This document shows positions 45,482-60,669 of a stretch of DNA of 64,000 nt, in pieces; position 1 is the stretch's first letter; every line of letters begins with the position of its first letter. Source of the DNA: Shigella phage SSP1; sequence record KY963424. One strand, given 5' to 3'. Below the pieces are notes generated by a model. It made no database searches. It saw nothing but the letters and a program-made list of their open reading frames with translations, and had not been told where the DNA came from. A program made the translations under genes and the position numbers.

Positions 45482-45927
45482 AGATTACCGAATTTAAAGG
45501 TACTTATAGTTTCTTATCTAACTTTTATTTATCACCAATTACTTTCGAATACCTAAACGAGATATGGCATGCTGATACTGTAGAACATGCTTTTCAGGCT
45601 ATGAAATCCGACCAAAAAGATGATGTAGCTCATGTACTGCGCTCCCTAAATGCAGGTGTTGCCAAACGTAGAGGACGTAAATTAACTCTGCGCTCTGACT
45701 GGGATAAGGTAAAAGATGATGTAATGCTAGAGCTTTTACGGTTAAAGTTTGCAATCCCTGATTTGAGAGACAAACTGTTAGCAACAAAAAATGCAACTTT
45801 GATCGAAGGAAATACCTGGGGAGATACATATTGGGGTGTTTGCCGAGGAATCGGGGATAATACTTTAGGAGTTCTTTTGATGCAGGTAAGGTCTGAAATT
45901 AAAAGAAGCTTACAGTTAATAAATTAA
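45478..45927 (+). CDS. NADAR-family (YbiA/DUF1768-like) protein
   Basis: 149 aa; FLSNFY...EHAFQA...KSDW...GxxxWG pattern typical of the NADAR domain. Confidence 0.6.
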   Translation: MKITEFKGTYSFLSNFYLSPITFEYLNEIWHADTVEHAFQAMKSDQKDDVAHVLRSLNAGVAKRRGRKLTLRSDWDKVKDDVMLELLRLKFAIPDLRDKLLATKNATLIEGNTWGDTYWGVCRGIGDNTLGVLLMQVRSEIKRSLQLIN

Positions 45928-45935
45928 AAATTCAT

Positions 45936-45964
45936 TTGCTAAACGCTTCAAATTCTCGTATAAT
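45936..45964 (+). promoter_or_regulatory. T5-type early promoter (TTGCTA-17-TATAAT)
   Basis: AAAAATTCATTTGCTAAACGCTTCAAATTCTCGTATAAT + CATAAATTGA box. Confidence 0.65.
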
Positions 45965-46002
45965 ATACTTCATAAATTGATAAACAAAAAGGAAAACAAA
46001 TA

Positions 46003-47363: not shown

Positions 47364-48065
47364 ATGAAAGTAAAACCATTTGGTATGCTAGATATTGAAT
47401 CTCTAGGAACTCCAGGAGATTGTGGTACTACTCATATCGCAATGCCTTCTTTCGCTTTTGTGGCTATGCATGGAATTGATAAAGATCCTGATCTAGTATT
47501 TGTTACTTTGGATGTACAAGATCAGCTTAATTCTGGTGCTAAAGTTACAGCATCTACTCTAGCATTCTGGATGGATCAAGCTAAAAATAGCCCGTCTGCT
47601 ATCCACATTATGGAAGCTATGAAGGAACGTAATCCAAAACTGATTGCCTTCCAAAATGGTAAACATCATTGCACTAATAAATTAGGCTCAAACTATGCTG
47701 CCTTCTCTATGGCTCAAAATATTATGGAGTTGGCTCTAGGCGAAAACGCTTTGTATTATGGCAATGGTCCAGAGTTTGATATGACTATCTACTCCGCAAA
47801 TACGTTCCATGCTGGAACCAATGGAGAGGTAGTTCCGTGGAAATTCTGGAATTTGGGCAATGTTCGATCTCTTCGTAATCTCTGGATGCAAACTGGCTAT
47901 AGTTATAAAGCTCTAGAAACCGAAGGTATTAGCTGGGCAATAGCTAAAATGGAGAAGATGGACACCATTCGTTATGGGATCTATCCGGTTAAGCACGACC
48001 CAGCATTCGATGCCCTAGTTGAGAGCTATTGTGTTGCAGCTATGATCGAAAAAATGAAAATTTGA
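47364..48065 (+). CDS. Putative DEDDh 3'-5' exonuclease
   Basis: MLDIESLG (Exo I-like D-x-E) and KHDPAFDA (Exo III H-x4-D) motifs; tentative. Confidence 0.45.
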   Translation: MKVKPFGMLDIESLGTPGDCGTTHIAMPSFAFVAMHGIDKDPDLVFVTLDVQDQLNSGAKVTASTLAFWMDQAKNSPSAIHIMEAMKERNPKLIAFQNGKHHCTNKLGSNYAAFSMAQNIMELALGENALYYGNGPEFDMTIYSANTFHAGTNGEVVPWKFWNLGNVRSLRNLWMQTGYSYKALETEGISWAIAKMEKMDTIRYGIYPVKHDPAFDALVESYCVAAMIEKMKI

Positions 48066-48066
48066 T

Positions 48067-48095
48067 TTGCTTCCGGCTCCAAAATTCTGTATAAT
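48067..48095 (+). promoter_or_regulatory. T5-type early promoter (TTGCTT-17-TATAAT)
   Basis: GATTTGCTTCCGGCTCCAAAATTCTGTATAAT + CATAAATTTGAGA box. Confidence 0.65.
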
Positions 48096-48135
48096 ATATT
48101 CATAAATTTGAGAAAACAATAAAAGGAAAACAAAT

Positions 48136-49775: not shown

Positions 49776-50225
49776 ATGAAGGCAGCTTTGCTTTTAGTAG
49801 CTGCCCTTACCTTCAGCTTTAGTAGTCAGGCATCGCACGATGCAAAAGAAATAGATTGCATTGCTAAAAATATCTATTTCGAGAGTCGTGGTGAGGGCAT
49901 AAAGGGAATGACGGCGATTGCACATGTTACTAAAAACCGTGTAAACTCCGGTAAATTCCCAGATTCCTACTGTAAAGTAGTATATCAGTCTAACCAGTTC
50001 TCTTGGGTATCTAAGAGACCAAAAGTTGATAAAACTGATGAGGCTTGGCAAACCGCTAAGAATTTAGCTAGAGTGATATACTACGTTGATTTACCACAAG
50101 ATCCTACATATGGAGCACTATACTTCCATAGTGGTAAAGATAAACCTTACTGGACAAAGAAGTTTAAGAAAACAACTAAGATTAAGGGGCATACGTTTTA
50201 TAAACCTGTTGTCACTAAAACTTAA
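49776..50225 (+). CDS. Secreted cell-wall hydrolase, SleB-like (Hydrolase_2)
   Basis: N-terminal signal peptide MKAALLLVAALTFSFSSQA; IAKNIYFESRGEG...AIAHVTKNR core similar to SleB/CwlJ-type hydrolases. Confidence 0.55.
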   Translation: MKAALLLVAALTFSFSSQASHDAKEIDCIAKNIYFESRGEGIKGMTAIAHVTKNRVNSGKFPDSYCKVVYQSNQFSWVSKRPKVDKTDEAWQTAKNLARVIYYVDLPQDPTYGALYFHSGKDKPYWTKKFKKTTKIKGHTFYKPVVTKT

Positions 50226-50233
50226 AAATTTAC

Positions 50234-50262
50234 TTGCTTAAATACTTAAATTTCCGTATAAT
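50234..50262 (+). promoter_or_regulatory. T5-type early promoter (TTGCTT-17-TATAAT)
   Basis: AAAAATTTACTTGCTTAAATACTTAAATTTCCGTATAAT. Confidence 0.65.
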
Positions 50263-50293
50263 ACTTCCATAAATTAATGAGAGGAAGCGAAAT

Positions 50294-50464
50294 ATGAAAT
50301 CAGTTGTAATTATTGGTGTTAACACTCGCGGTATTCGTACTACGAAAACTGTTAAAACTTCTAACGTTGCTGAAATCACTACGAACCCTAAAAAGTTTGA
50401 TTTCGCCAAAGTCTCAGCAGTTATGACAGAACAATCTTTTAACCAAGCGTTAGGAATGAAATAA
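50294..50464 (+). CDS. Hypothetical small protein (56 aa)
   Basis: GAGGAAGCGAAATATG RBS; below 60-aa cut-off of ORF track; stop overlaps next start (TAATG). Confidence 0.35.
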   Translation: MKSVVIIGVNTRGIRTTKTVKTSNVAEITTNPKKFDFAKVSAVMTEQSFNQALGMK

Positions 50465-50907
50465 TGGAAGAGAATATTTTAGATGTTTTGCGTAGAGCTT
50501 TGCAGGATTCTAAGTTTAATGGTTCTGATAAAGAAGTCGCTAAAAGCTATCAGACCATAATTGGGGATCTTCAGCGTATTGATAAAGATTTCATCACTTC
50601 TGAACAATTTGTGTCTTATCTCAAAGCTCAACTAAAAAGCATTAACCAGATGAAAGCTAAACTTCATGGTCAAGATCTTGATAGTTATAGCTTGCAGTCT
50701 GCTCAGTATGAATACATTCTAAATAAGTGGTTGCAGGAGTATCTGCCCCCTCAGTTATCTGATACTGAGATTCGTAAATACTTTGCAGAATTAGTTAAGC
50801 TAAACCCTGGAATTACAAAAGGTATGCTGATGAAAGCGATTAAGGAAGAATTTCCTGGGCGTTATGATGGTGGTACTGCTGCTCAGATTGCTGGCGAATT
50901 TAATTAA
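50464..50907 (+). CDS. GatB/YqeY-domain protein
   Basis: 147 aa; LSDTEIRKYFAEL...GMLMKAIK pattern typical of YqeY/GatB C-terminal domain. Confidence 0.55.
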   Translation: MEENILDVLRRALQDSKFNGSDKEVAKSYQTIIGDLQRIDKDFITSEQFVSYLKAQLKSINQMKAKLHGQDLDSYSLQSAQYEYILNKWLQEYLPPQLSDTEIRKYFAELVKLNPGITKGMLMKAIKEEFPGRYDGGTAAQIAGEFN

Positions 50908-50915
50908 AAATTTAT

Positions 50916-50944
50916 TTGCTAAATGCCTTTAAATTCTGTATAAT
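50916..50944 (+). promoter_or_regulatory. T5-type early promoter (TTGCTA-17-TATAAT) preceding ORF-less region
   Basis: AAAAATTTATTTGCTAAATGCCTTTAAATTCTGTATAAT + CATAAATTAGGGAAC. Confidence 0.65.
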
Positions 50945-51182
50945 ATATTCATAAATTAGGGAACAGCGAGCCGATTACGCTGAACTTGTCTTAATGTAAG
51001 ATGCGTCGAGCACTAAGATTCGTTGAATAGAGTCGGTGGGTTAGTTGTAAAACTAGTACACATGGGGCGGCAATCCCGGTTAGTGGCTAGAACGTGTAAA
51101 ATGAGGCGTCTGAAACCTCTCCCCTAAACTCTTCTCTAATTTATAAATAGTGGGGTGTGGAAATCACTTATGTAGTAACACT

Positions 51183-51254
51183 GCCGTCCTAGTATAATTG
51201 GTATTATCAAGCCGTAACTGGTGGAAGATGTAGGTTCGAATCCTACGGTCGGTA
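51183..51254 (+). ncRNA. tRNA-like element (canonical T-arm, 6/7 acceptor pairs, no recognisable anticodon arm)
   Basis: GTAGG-TTCGAAT-CCTAC T-arm; 5' GCCGTCC pairs with 3' GGTCGGT except one U-U; D- and anticodon regions do not fold canonically. Confidence 0.35.
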
Positions 51255-51754
51255 AGAACTGGATAACTGATGCTTTTAACGTAAAAGCTTCCGAGGTTAG
51301 TTGCGCACTGCCTAAACCACGCGGTAGTTGGTTCCAGACTAACCAACCAGTCTGCTGAATAGTTTTATTACGATTTAACTATGTCCAGGCTAAAGAAGAA
51401 CTTTAGAAGGTATTCTAGGATAGTGAAGTTCTTCCTCCATATCGGAGTAGTTTTTCAAGCTATCCACAAAGTGGGAAATGCTGACATGAGAGATGTCACT
51501 AATGGTGCACAATAGCACAGGTAATTCGCGATAATTCCTGTTGAGTAGCAGCAAAAGGCGGGAAGTCATGACCCCAAGCCTAACCGAGTCCTCAATATAC
51601 CGCAGGACATAACCACTAAGTCACCCTGACTTAAACTGGAAAATAATAGACGTTACCGTATTTTGTCTTGAAATACTTAATGAGTGAGACTTATGACTCT
51701 CCCGGTATCGTCTGTATTTTTAAGAGTTTTTACGAGAGTTCTTAAAAATACTTA

Positions 51755-51827
51755 AACGGGGTGTAGTCTAAGGGAGAGGCAGGAGTCTTCTAAATTCCTT
51801 TATGCAGGTTCGAATCCTGTATGAGCA
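51755..51827 (+). ncRNA. tRNA-like 3' element (T-arm GCAGG-TTCGAAT-CCTGT) at end of ORF-less region
   Basis: Canonical T-loop; no complementary 5' acceptor strand found by eye. Confidence 0.3.
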
Positions 51828-52734
51828 AAAATTGATGCGTAATATCAAACGTTGGGGTATTGGTGCTGCAGTTGGTTTGGTAGGTTTAGTTCTGGCCCTT
51901 AACTCCTATACTGTTGTTCAAGACGGTACTGTTAAAACCCAGACTTTCCTGGGTAAAGTTGACCCTAGCCCAGTATTACCCGGCTTTCATATTGTAAATC
52001 CTTTTGCTTCTTTCGATACTTTTAGTACTAAAGATATTGCTCTAAAATTAGATAAACTTCAGGTTCCTAGTCAGGATAAGTTTAAATCCACTGTTGACCT
52101 GACTGTTATGTTGCAGTTTGATGGTTCTAAGGCACCGATTAACCGTATTAATGCAGGTACTCAGGATCAATCGTTAGACAAATATGTAACTGAAAAATTA
52201 CTGTCTACTATTCGTGAGTTTGGTAAATCTGTACCTAAAGCACAAGATTTGTTTGATGCTAAAATTCAGGCTCAATTGCAAACTGCAATTCAACAGGAAG
52301 TTGAAGAGTATGCACGCCCATATGGTTACACAGTTAAGCAGGTGTTCCTTCAGGATATTACTTTGCCACCGGTAATCATGGAACAGGTACAGAATACCAA
52401 AGTTCGTGAAGAGCAGGTTAATGCTGCTAAAGCTGAATTAGCTCGTGTTGAACAGGAAGCACAGCAAAAAGTTAAACAAGCAGAAGCAGATCGTGAAGCC
52501 CGCAACAACCAAGCTATTGCCAATGAACGTGACGCAGATGCTAAACTATACGCAGCTAAGAAAGAAGCTGAAGCTAACGCCGCATTACAACGTACCATTA
52601 CTCCTGAGATGATTCGCTGGAAGCAACTGGAAGTCGAAATGATTCGTGCTCAGAAATATCAAGGTGGTGTACCCCAGACTGTGGTAGGTACTGGCTACGA
52701 TGGTCAAATGATCATGGATATGCGTAATAAATAA
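51802..52734 (+). CDS. SPFH/band-7 domain membrane protein (prohibitin/HflC-like)
   Basis: N-terminal TM helix WGIGAAVGLVGLVLAL, SPFH-like core, C-terminal Ala/Glu/Gln-rich coiled coil; likely start at ATG 51835 (MRNIKRW); no clear SD. Confidence 0.65.
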   Translation: MQVRILYEQKLMRNIKRWGIGAAVGLVGLVLALNSYTVVQDGTVKTQTFLGKVDPSPVLPGFHIVNPFASFDTFSTKDIALKLDKLQVPSQDKFKSTVDLTVMLQFDGSKAPINRINAGTQDQSLDKYVTEKLLSTIREFGKSVPKAQDLFDAKIQAQLQTAIQQEVEEYARPYGYTVKQVFLQDITLPPVIMEQVQNTKVREEQVNAAKAELARVEQEAQQKVKQAEADREARNNQAIANERDADAKLYAAKKEAEANAALQRTITPEMIRWKQLEVEMIRAQKYQGGVPQTVVGTGYDGQMIMDMRNK

Positions 52735-52759
52735 TACCCGCATGTAACATCTGAAGTAA

Positions 52760-52796
52760 GCCCTGCGTTCCCTGGAGAGCGCAGGGTTTTTCTGTA
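52760..52796 (+). terminator. Intrinsic terminator after SPFH gene
   Basis: CCCTGCG...CGCAGGG hairpin followed by TTTTTCTG. Confidence 0.65.
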
Positions 52797-55384: not shown

Positions 55385-55462
55385 GGTTCTCAAGCTCATA
55401 TGGTATGAGCACCCGGCTCATAACCGGAAGGTACGTAGGTTCGAATCCTCGGGGAGCCACCA
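55385..55462 (+). tRNA. tRNA with CAT anticodon (Met or Ile2)
   Basis: Acceptor GGTTCTC/GGGAGCC (with G-U pairs), D-stem GCTC/GAGC, anticodon loop CTCATAA, T-loop TTCGAAT with imperfect stem, CCA encoded. Confidence 0.6.
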
Positions 55463-60592: not shown

Positions 60593-60608
60593 TTTATTAA
60601 AAATTCAT

Positions 60609-60638
60609 TTGCTATTCTGCTTTATTATCTGTATAATA
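60609..60638 (+). promoter_or_regulatory. T5-type early promoter (TTGCTA-18-TATAAT)
   Basis: AAAAATTCATTTGCTATTCTGCTTTATTATCTGTATAAT. Confidence 0.6.
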
Positions 60639-60669
60639 TATTTTATAAAGTGAAGAGAAGGAAAGCTAA

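Follow-up and report, generated by a model that had tools for sequence, protein, structure and literature searches.

RNAX of T5-like phages: a large, conserved noncoding RNA with a tRNA-like module and two self-complementary loops

In the Shigella phage SSP1 sequence (record KY963424; the 64,000-nucleotide [nt] stretch analyzed here is called the window), about 850 nt behind a strong early promoter are nearly free of open reading frames (ORFs). A first-pass annotation had suggested for them a large stable noncoding RNA, a cluster of degenerate tRNAs, or a long structured leader for the downstream SPFH gene. We conclude with high confidence that the region is the RNAX gene, which specifies a noncoding RNA of ~806 nt, is driven by a strong early host-type promoter, and has been kept throughout the Demerecviridae. 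RNAX is conserved, noncoding, modular, and heavily base paired, and its helices are kept by compensatory changes. Of two T-arms in the region, the second belongs to a genuine tRNA-Arg(UCU) gene that lies directly after RNAX and is truncated in this genome. The earlier interpretation is thus partly supported: the large stable RNA is supported by homology to T5 rnaX, which is annotated as such, and by conserved structure with covariation, and the other two suggestions fared less well, as described below.

RNAX corresponds to an annotated RNA of phage T5

50916..50944, + strand: early sigma-70 promoter, with a -35 hexamer TTGCTA, a 17-nt spacer, and a -10 hexamer TATAAT (10 of 12 consensus positions)
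50951..51756, + strand: RNAX noncoding RNA, ~806 nt, from the T5 and DT571/2 rnaX annotation and homologues

The consensus promoter reported at first pass was confirmed at 50916..50944, and T5 carries its annotated "promoter P 16-17" at the collinear position. We placed the start of RNAX at 50951, 7 nt past the -10 hexamer; by analogy with T5 early promoters such as PN25, transcription should presumably start at this A. The T5 annotation starts RNAX at the equivalent of window position 50958, and, following that annotation, the 3' end was set at the base preceding tRNA-Arg. The T5 record (AY543070) has a collinear order of promoter P 16-17, misc_RNA rnaX (719 nt), tRNA-Arg, and the membrane protein T5.080, and its GenBank wording for rnaX is "RNAX, stable RNA with unknown functions" (AY543070/NC_005859). 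Phage DT571/2 (NC_047749) carries the same rnaX annotation (636 nt), again followed by tRNA-Arg.

The window belongs to a Tequintavirus (a T5-like phage), and 437 phage records match the region at high identity. T5 rnaX is a direct orthologue: the promoter, the flanking genes (T5.081 upstream; tRNA-Arg and T5.080 downstream), and the collinear sequence all agree, and the shared parts are 92 to 98% identical. The two copies differ in that the window RNAX keeps a 5' domain of ~165 nt that T5 rnaX is without (806 versus 719 nt) and in that the downstream tRNA-Arg is truncated in the window only. The T5 annotation carries no structure, family, or function, and literature searches (RNAX, T5 stable RNAs, and T5 noncoding RNAs) found no paper on RNAX. 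RNAX was previously known as an annotation line only; a publication, Rfam family, structure, or function was not found in our searches.

RNAX is conserved across the Demerecviridae and does not encode a protein

Two distant searches returned RNAX homologues in 577 and 524 phage records. Homologues were found in Epseptimavirus (phages of Salmonella, Escherichia, Citrobacter, and Yersinia) and in Klebsiella Sugarlandvirus phages, and they reach the subfamily Mccorquodalevirinae (Pectobacterium phages My1 and DU_PP_V). A scan of IMG/VR with a degenerate pattern for the terminal hairpin gave mostly chance matches and added one genome (L084, DU_PP_V), and a metagenome scan added 12 close relatives. 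Units extracted from the -10 hexamer to the conserved terminal hairpin yielded 55 distinct sequences, and the size of RNAX across the family is 0.65 to 1.3 kb.

RNAX unit length, by lineage
This window: 809 nt
T5: 729 nt
Short Tequintavirus variants: ~647 nt
Epseptimavirus: 780 to 1140 nt
Yersinia phiR2-01: 1042 nt
Pectobacterium My1: 947 nt
Klebsiella phages: 1250 to 1300 nt

Units from distant subfamilies are only ~52 to 70% identical to the window unit, yet near-invariant blocks and compensatory pair changes persist in them.

The scarcity of ORFs noted at first pass holds: between the upstream stop codon (50907) and the SPFH frame there are only short, mechanical ORFs (34, 45, 44, and 25 amino acids [aa] on the + strand and 60, 59, and 26 aa on the - strand). 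Neither an ORF common to the RNAX homologues nor any conserved coding frame was present among the 55 distinct sequences. Long ORFs within RNAX units are lineage-specific insertions only (147 to 160 aa), and the one such ORF that was scanned, of 160 aa, is an HNH endonuclease. The possibility that the region codes for one or more small proteins, for instance, the 44-aa basic peptide from 51381, was rejected, and we regard its probability as practically negligible. ORFs of 44 to 60 aa do exist, and some annotators have called them, but none is conserved. The 44-aa ORF lacks a Shine-Dalgarno sequence, as had been reported; it is broken in T5 (13 aa) and in L016 (22 aa), its start motif is missing in 29 of the 55 distinct homologues, and it was not found outside Tequintavirus. 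Moreover, the ORFs that have been annotated vary from record to record and lie across covarying helices or the tRNA-like unit.

RNAX is also a hot spot for gene insertions. An HNH_3 endonuclease ORF (160 aa) replaces the 5' domain in some Epseptimaviruses (L007, 1252-1734; L033; L181, which is CitS1), a 147-aa ORF is present in two Tequintavirus variants (L017/L023), and several phages carry ~530 nt with at least one ORF of unknown family between the RNAX terminal hairpin and tRNA-Arg.

A covarying core holds a tRNA-like cloverleaf that lacks an anticodon loop

51147..51294, + strand: conserved core module (148 nt), made up of a GUGGGG box, the leader-trailer helix, the tRNA-like cloverleaf, and a hairpin
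51163..51176, + strand: leader strand AUCA-C-UUAU-G-UAGU of a 12-bp (base pair) helix extending the acceptor-like stem; pairs with 51258-51271
51183..51254, + strand: tRNA-like cloverleaf with no anticodon loop; it has an acceptor-like stem, a D-arm containing GG, a canonical T-arm, and, where an anticodon arm would be, a variable hairpin
51258..51271, + strand: trailer strand ACUG-G-AUAA-C-UGAU of the leader-trailer helix
51272..51288, + strand: hairpin GCUUUUA-ACG-UAAAAGC, covarying as GCUUC/GAAGC, GCUUAU/AUAAGC, and GGUUC/GAACC

Alignment across relatives, a check that the first-pass annotation had suggested, revealed compensatory changes in RNAX helices, and these are best documented in the core. 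The core is near invariant in places (UAGUGGGGUG..GAA...ACUUAUG and GGAUAACUG), and the invariant strands pair with each other. We assessed a 41-pair structure on an 18-sequence alignment (A3), with controls in which pairing partners were slid by 1 to 3 columns. Paired cells amounted to 89.4% (34 to 42% in the slid controls), 22 pairs had changed on both sides (3 to 7 in the controls), and the covariation score was 0.335 (0.055 to 0.088 in the controls); none of 500 shuffles attained the values of the core for any of these three measures. The 12-bp leader-trailer helix, which contains conserved C.C and G.G 1x1 mismatches, had 99.1% of its cells paired and 7 of its 12 pairs changed on both sides, and, beyond an internal loop, it is continued by the acceptor-like stem of the cloverleaf. 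The core helices were also recovered by RNAalifold unaided and by minimum-free-energy (MFE) and centroid folds of the window sequence alone.

A covariance model of the core (R1) found one strong copy per genome, scoring 167.8 bits in the window and 113 bits in My1; other matches were weak (at most 36 bits) and mostly fell on ordinary tRNAs, over the cloverleaf part. Three of the weak matches (31 to 36 bits) were full length: L008 3803-3955 and L010 4286-4438, both around the genuine tRNA-Arg of Klebsiella phages, and DU_PP_V (L084) 221-365. These matches hint that tRNA-Arg may likewise have paired leader and trailer flanks.

The conservation of the core bears on the possibility that the region is decayed tRNA-cluster DNA, that is, a pseudo-tRNA, a damaged tRNA, and spacer, transcribed without a function of its own. 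Its position at the edge of the phage tRNA island, the labels tRNA-OTHER or pseudo given to the cloverleaf by annotators, the dispensability of the whole region in the T5 mutant st0 (see below), and the insertions of endonuclease genes would all fit such decay. However, neutral spacer would keep neither helices with both strands changed nor loop self-complementarity, and near-invariant blocks with many compensatory pair changes are seen across subfamilies whose RNAX units share only ~52 to 70% identity with that of the window. We therefore give decay very little credence. The earlier suggestion of a cluster of degenerate tRNAs is not supported either: RNAX contains a single tRNA-like module, which has no anticodon, and is followed by a single genuine but truncated tRNA-Arg. 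In line with this, the Rfam scan suggested at first pass returned tRNA hits alone, and no other tRNA-like unit beyond those two appeared at E values up to 10.

Both T-arms described at first pass are present (GTAGGTTCGAATCCTAC at 51230-51246 and GCAGGTTCGAATCCTGT at 51804-51820), although the second had been placed at 51806. As had been noted, the first T-arm sits in a 72-nt unit (51183-51254) whose acceptor stem has 6 of 7 pairs. The seventh position is a U.U mismatch, and the Rfam tRNA model leaves the anticodon arm unaligned. The unit scores 35.5 bits against that model (RF00005; gathering score, 29), all of it from the acceptor, D, and T arms. No 5-bp stem and 7-nt loop with an anticodon consistent among orthologues was found in it. 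In the window, the hairpin standing in place of the anticodon arm has a 3- to 4-bp stem and a 4- to 6-nt loop; it is extended to 5 + 4 bp in Klebsiella phages, has 6 bp in the Yersinia phage, and has 5 bp with a 3-nt loop in My1. Annotation tools disagree on the unit: ARAGORN made no call in the window and called Ser(act), Ser(cga), or SeC(tca) in relatives, and other annotators have labeled it tRNA-OTHER, pseudo, tRNA-Ser(CGA), tRNA-Sec, or tRNA-Leu.

The elements of a tRNA elbow are nevertheless there. The GTTCGAAT T-loop and the GG of the D-loop are conserved, and the 5-bp T stem shows compensatory changes (UA/CG at one pair and AU/GC at another). The unit has no free acceptor end, since the 6/7-paired stem continues into the 12-bp helix and there is no CCA; the U.U mismatch is kept in My1 though neighboring pairs have changed. 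In GSW6, PMBT22, L036, and L037, the whole cloverleaf is swapped for a hairpin closed by covarying pairs, CCAGA/UCUGG, and the flanking helix is kept. Because the cloverleaf can be exchanged for a plain hairpin and its anticodon arm is variable, we consider it a peripheral module that keeps the tRNA elbow rather than a decoding tRNA.

A different role for the cloverleaf would be that of a signal, mainly for RNase P (and 3' processing), by which RNAX would be cut into functional pieces of ~230 nt, ~72 nt (the tRNA-like unit), and ~500 nt. This possibility is compatible with a noncoding RNAX and competes only with the view of the tRNA-like unit as a structural module. In its favor, covariation accompanies the conservation of the T-arm, the D-loop GG, and the acceptor-like stem, and T5 records annotate other short stable RNAs in the tRNA region. 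There is also a precedent in mascRNA of MALAT1, a tRNA-like cloverleaf within a long noncoding RNA whose acceptor stem is extended by leader-trailer pairing, a pairing that promotes RNase P processing (PMC8457004). However, mascRNA lies at a 3' end and serves RNase P-dependent 3'-end formation, whereas the RNAX cloverleaf is internal and is missing in some lineages, four of which carry the non-tRNA hairpin within the same flanking helix. In addition, T5 and DT571/2 annotate RNAX as a single RNA across the tRNA-like unit. The unit has neither a CCA nor a discriminator context, and with the 12-bp helix formed, no leader stays single stranded. We think it unlikely, though worth keeping in view, that processing is the main purpose of the cloverleaf.

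Two hairpin loops retain self-complementarity

51517..51541, + strand: hairpin A, stem ACAGG/CCUGU, with a 15-nt A/U-rich loop containing UCGCGA (51526-51531)
51557..51580, + strand: hairpin B, a covarying stem with the 8-nt palindrome GUCAUGAC (51565-51572) in its loop

The self-complementary sequence in loop A is not the same from lineage to lineage.

Loop A palindrome, by lineage
This window, Tequintavirus, and most Epseptimavirus: UCGCGA
T5: CGCGCG
L037: CUCGAG
Klebsiella phages: (U)CCGCGG(A)
Yersinia phiR2-01, Salmonella 1-23, and CitS1: GUGCGCAC
My1 and DU_PP_V: GUGCAC
L034 (exception): CGCG only

The stems of hairpin A all differ between lineages while the self-complementarity of the loop stays. 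When loops were shuffled, the chance of holding a 6-nt palindrome was 0.07 to 0.29 per loop, and the product over seven lineages was 6.6e-7. Palindromic 6-mers are not enriched in this genome; they are slightly underrepresented (0.0128 versus 0.0156 expected). In loop B, GUCAUGAC itself is invariant except in My1, and the lower stem around it covaries (GGC/GCC, GGU/ACC, GAC/GUC, GUGAC/GUCAC, and AAAC/GUUU). In 10 of 11 RNAs checked, the loop A palindrome occurs once per RNA, 39 to 45 nt ahead of GUCAUGAC; My1 has a second GUGCAC within a hairpin of the three-way junction. Support for hairpins A and B was taken from per-lineage folds rather than from a formal pair count.

Thus, both RNAX loops appear to have been selected for self-complementarity. 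Adjacent bases within one loop cannot pair together, so the simplest explanation would be pairing between two RNAX molecules. For OLE L9.3 and GOLLD L21a, palindrome switching (GGCC to GAUC or AGCU) backed the symmetric kissing loops seen by cryo-electron microscopy (Kretsch et al., bioRxiv 10.1101/2024.12.08.627333). As judged from the sequences, loops A and B bear the signature used to infer intermolecular kissing loops in those two RNAs. The dimerization initiation site (DIS) of HIV-1 is a further likeness, with its apical loop, its 6-nt G/C-rich self-complementary sequence, and its unpaired flanking purines. Natural DIS variants have GCGCGC and GUGCAC; these resemble the loop A palindromes, and GUGCAC is identical to one of them. 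RNAX is unrelated to the DIS as an RNA and in its biology, and it has two such loops, 39 to 45 nt apart, with which chains, rings, or cages could form instead of a plain dimer.

Alternatively, the palindromes could be DNA-level protein or restriction-type sites, or RNA sites for a dimeric protein, in place of kissing contacts. Palindromes of 6 to 8 nt are typical for dimeric DNA-binding proteins, and the near invariance of GUCAUGAC is what a protein site would lead one to expect. The loop A palindrome, however, differs by lineage, with self-complementarity alone conserved, so that no single sequence-specific protein site is conserved there. In both hairpins, the palindrome occupies the apical loop and the stem shows covariation as RNA, and the slight genomic underrepresentation of palindromic 6-mers also speaks against such sites. 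We judge this explanation rather improbable.

Helix P1, the variable domains, and the terminal hairpin

50951..50963, + strand: 5' strand of helix P1, AUAAAUUAGGGAA; pairs with 51132-51144
50964..51131, + strand: dispensable 5' domain, with hairpin CAGCG/CGCUG at 50964-50982 and box UGAAUAGAGUCGGUGGGUU at 51024-51042
51132..51144, + strand: 3' strand of helix P1, UUCUCUAAUUUAU
51314..51321, + strand: AAACCACG box, one of three CCAC boxes; RNAalifold pairs 51150-53 with 51317-20
51323..51461, + strand: Tequintavirus-specific middle region with local hairpins, including an inverted repeat at 51393-51403/51426-51434
51619..51631, + strand: conserved hairpin AGUCA-CCC-UGACU, followed by an AAACUGGAA box at 51633-51641
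51648..51713, + strand: three-way junction, with outer stem AGACG/CGUCU around two hairpins, one of which has a (G/A)CUUAAU loop
51714..51751, + strand: terminal hairpin GUAUUUUUAAGAG...UCUUAAAAAUAC, almost invariant and present in My1

The first 13 nt of the transcript pair with 51132-51144 to give P1, which forms in every lineage that has the 5' domain. The domain so enclosed includes a hairpin that covaries in My1 (CAGCA/UGCUG). T5-type and ~647-nt variants are without 50964-51131, yet they retain P1 as a simple hairpin, and MET_P1-88, L033, and CitS1 have an HNH endonuclease ORF in place of the domain. A region of ~55 nt covering the RNAX promoter and the first transcribed bases, CATAAATTA, recurs in the window with 80 to 90% identity at 45922-45978, 48053-48108, 50222-50276, and 60593-60642 on the + strand and at 16121-16065 on the - strand. 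The recurrences look like a family of T5 early promoters with a common initial transcribed sequence. The 5' strand of P1 would accordingly be partly a generic promoter element, with the 3' strand as its specific partner.

In My1, all three CCAC boxes have become CCGU and all three GUGG boxes have become ACGG, and this joint change indicates long-range pairings between the two sets. The middle region (51323-51461) cannot be aligned outside Tequintavirus, and its hairpins are seen in MFE and centroid folds. The inverted repeat described there at first pass, AAGAAGAACTT/AAGTTCTTC, is real, though it lies at the positions listed above and does not start at 51384.

The three-way junction refolds in each lineage from unrelated sequences, according to single-sequence folds, with outer stems such as CUGACGG/CCGUCGG, CAGUAG/CUACUG, GACAG/CUGUC, and UGACUAG/CUAGUCA. 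The terminal hairpin forms the 3' edge of the conserved unit in all lineages, whatever comes after it. An all-against-all scan for column covariation in a global MAFFT alignment of the 55 units was discarded as too noisy, the variable regions being misaligned. With a window-projected alignment of 31 sequences, RNAalifold found P1, the core, and several hairpins again but missed the variable helices.

A possible mode of action and comparison with other large RNAs

In relatives of this phage, cleavage by RNase P at the 5' end of tRNA-Arg would free the 3' end of RNAX, as the T5 annotation implies, and the terminal hairpin would then protect that end. Loops A and B may form symmetric kissing contacts between RNAX molecules and so join them, in the manner of OLE, ROOL, and GOLLD, into a dimer or a higher oligomer. 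The tRNA-like elbow would be a displayed peripheral module that may engage tRNA-recognizing factors. Putting these steps together, we tentatively propose, at somewhat less than an even chance, that RNAX is a third phage class of "ornate" RNA after GOLLD and ROOL and unrelated to them. RNAX molecules would assemble with one another, without protein, through two symmetric kissing loops 39 to 45 nt apart, one with GUCAUGAC and the other with a variable palindrome like that of the DIS. A tRNA-shaped module would be shown on the assembly or enclosed within it, and RNAX would act, early in infection, on host or phage factors related to tRNA.

The gene upstream of RNAX (50464-50907), a T5.081 homologue often annotated as "tRNA amidotransferase," has a weak match of the YqeY/GatB type (25.4 bits; cutoff, 27). 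A domain of the tRNA-binding type beside an RNA with a tRNA-like module raises a possible functional link, and the YqeY-like product (GatB C-terminal, tRNA-binding type) as a partner of RNAX is a speculative suggestion.

Several observations weigh against the overall reading of RNAX given here or parts of it. Each loop has its exception (loop A of L034 retains CGCG only, and loop B of My1 reads GUCAUGC), and oligomerization is read from sequence alone. Which GUGG box pairs with which CCAC box is not decidable from the alignments, as all boxes change together in My1. The thermodynamic z-score of the window RNA is modest (-1.9). Sequence alignments lose register where the helices vary, and RNAalifold therefore sees little of the 3' domain; on the 3'-domain alignment A4, it returned invariant hairpins only. 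Similarly, distant relatives are hardly detected by a covariance model trained on close ones, so support for the 3' domain has to be given lineage by lineage: model R2 (loops A and B) scored 10 to 17 bits on the Klebsiella, Yersinia, and My1 copies, being too sequence specific. The status of RNAX as a "stable RNA" comes from the GenBank note. Finally, RNAX lies within the 8.5-kb deletion of the viable T5 mutant st0, whose deletion, as annotated, leaves a remnant of the T5.081 homologue fused to sequence beside tRNA-Asp, and RNAX motifs were not found in 14 kb around the deletion junction. RNAX is therefore dispensable in the laboratory, and any function would be accessory; such dispensability usually goes with accessory or counterdefense functions.

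Large, elaborately folded bacterial and phage RNAs are rare, and GOLLD and ROOL form RNA-only cages whose functions are still unknown. RNAX resembles them in being several hundred nucleotides long, rich in junctions, supported by covariation, and phage encoded at the edge of a tRNA island, which are the marks of an RNA of this kind. GOLLD can hold tRNAs in a linker, and ROOL and GOLLD homo-oligomers are held by kissing loops, some of them palindromic and covarying between palindromes (PMC5737381; bioRxiv 10.1101/2024.12.08.627333). RNAX differs from both in having no detectable homology to them, in its hosts (Enterobacterales) and phages (virulent siphoviruses), and in that its oligomer is deduced from sequence. 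Rfam scans of the window (E values up to 10) and of four divergent homologues (E values up to 5) gave tRNA hits only. As RNAX fails the ROOL and GOLLD covariance models, it is a member of neither family, and membership in the OLE, YrlA, transfer-messenger RNA (tmRNA), RNase P, or intron families was likewise rejected for want of an Rfam match. YrlA (a bacterial Y RNA-like RNA) and tmRNA share with RNAX a tRNA-elbow mimic joined to non-tRNA domains; RNAX differs from them in lacking an Rfam match, a Ro-binding stem, a tag reading frame, and a free acceptor end with CCA.

The analysis turns an unexplained GenBank line of T5 into a family-wide, covariation-supported ornate RNA with a tRNA mimic that is absent from Rfam. 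Metagenomes and hosts that are not easily manipulated are the main sources of GOLLD and ROOL. If the proposal is true, T5 and Escherichia coli would offer deletion mutants, defined early transcription, known tRNA-targeting defense systems, and easy biochemistry, and a tractable coliphage in which RNAX is dispensable (st0) would be a direct test system for the function of an RNA assembly. There is a consequence for annotation as well, in that pipelines label the cloverleaf inconsistently (tRNA-Ser, tRNA-Sec, tRNA-Leu, tRNA-OTHER, or pseudogene) and call spurious small ORFs across RNAX.

In this genome, a deletion joins a truncated tRNA-Arg to the SPFH gene

51757..51820, + strand: truncated tRNA-Arg(UCU), comprising nt 1 to 64 of 75, without its 3' acceptor strand, discriminator base, or CCA
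51820..51821, no strand: junction CCUGU/AUGAGC of a 79-bp deletion, from alignment with relatives
51802..52734, + strand: SPFH-family membrane protein gene (T5.080 homologue), now without a ribosome-binding site of its own and without its first ~11 codons

The first-pass statement that the region has no canonical tRNA is true of the window; the second T-arm is, however, what remains of a canonical tRNA-Arg(UCU), a gene found intact in all relatives examined and labeled tRNA-Arg(TCT) by other annotators. Rfam matched the remnant at 51764-51820 with 28.4 bits (threshold, 29), over model positions 8 to 63 only. ARAGORN found 18 tRNA genes downstream in the window and none in the RNAX/tRNA-Arg region, and it found an intact 75-nt tRNA-Arg(tct) in every relative tested; it found no tmRNA in the window. 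After CCTGT, the window reads ATGAGCA where relatives have CACCTCGGCCA. The 79-bp deletion removed this 3' end of tRNA-Arg, the intergenic ribosome-binding site, and, from the SPFH gene, the ATG with the first ~11 codons. What is left of the SPFH frame now opens within the tRNA T-arm, at an ATG (51802) to which it is fused in phase, and another in-frame ATG follows at 51835; the fusion reads MQVRILYEQKLMRN... in place of MFATKNTKELTYEQKLMRN... (window 51757-51846). The junction was seen only in the two fragments of the window's own source contig, IMGVR_UViG_2974603513_000001 (L013/L086), and 65 other loci are intact. The deletion may be either a real variant or an assembly error.

These arrangements bear on the suggestion that RNAX is a cis-acting structured leader controlling the SPFH gene or the tRNA operon. 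RNAX is co-oriented with and upstream of both tRNA-Arg and the SPFH gene, the + strand has no terminator-like site ahead of 52758, and the deletion, in this genome alone, fuses the RNAX/tRNA remnant to the SPFH frame. As a conserved role, however, that of an SPFH leader fails, since an intact tRNA-Arg and often extra genes intervene in relatives. The downstream neighbor differs by lineage: it is tRNA-Arg, inserted ORFs and then tRNA-Arg, a 108-aa ORF in Klebsiella phages, or My1_076 in the Pectobacterium phage My1. The conserved unit nonetheless always stops at the same terminal hairpin, and its 0.65 to 1.3 kb, with internal domains, far exceeds known leaders. We consider a leader function very unlikely and retain the reading of RNAX as a noncoding RNA gene in its own right.

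Downstream of the SPFH gene, a strong terminator-like hairpin at 52758-52789 (13 pairs, followed by a U run) is the first + strand site of this type after the RNAX promoter, and it matches the position of the T5 feature annotated as "efficient bidirectional rho-independent terminator." Among the tRNA genes of T5, records of T5 st0 (AY692264, 30209-33086) hold six more small misc_RNAs (RNAI, RNAIII, RNAIV, RNA1, RNA2, and RNA2H), which are annotated without function. Finally, a stretch at 55385-55459 in the window, directly after tRNA-Ser and not reported by ARAGORN, matches the Rfam tRNA model with 40.3 bits; it has a CAU anticodon region and several noncanonical pairs in the acceptor and T stems.

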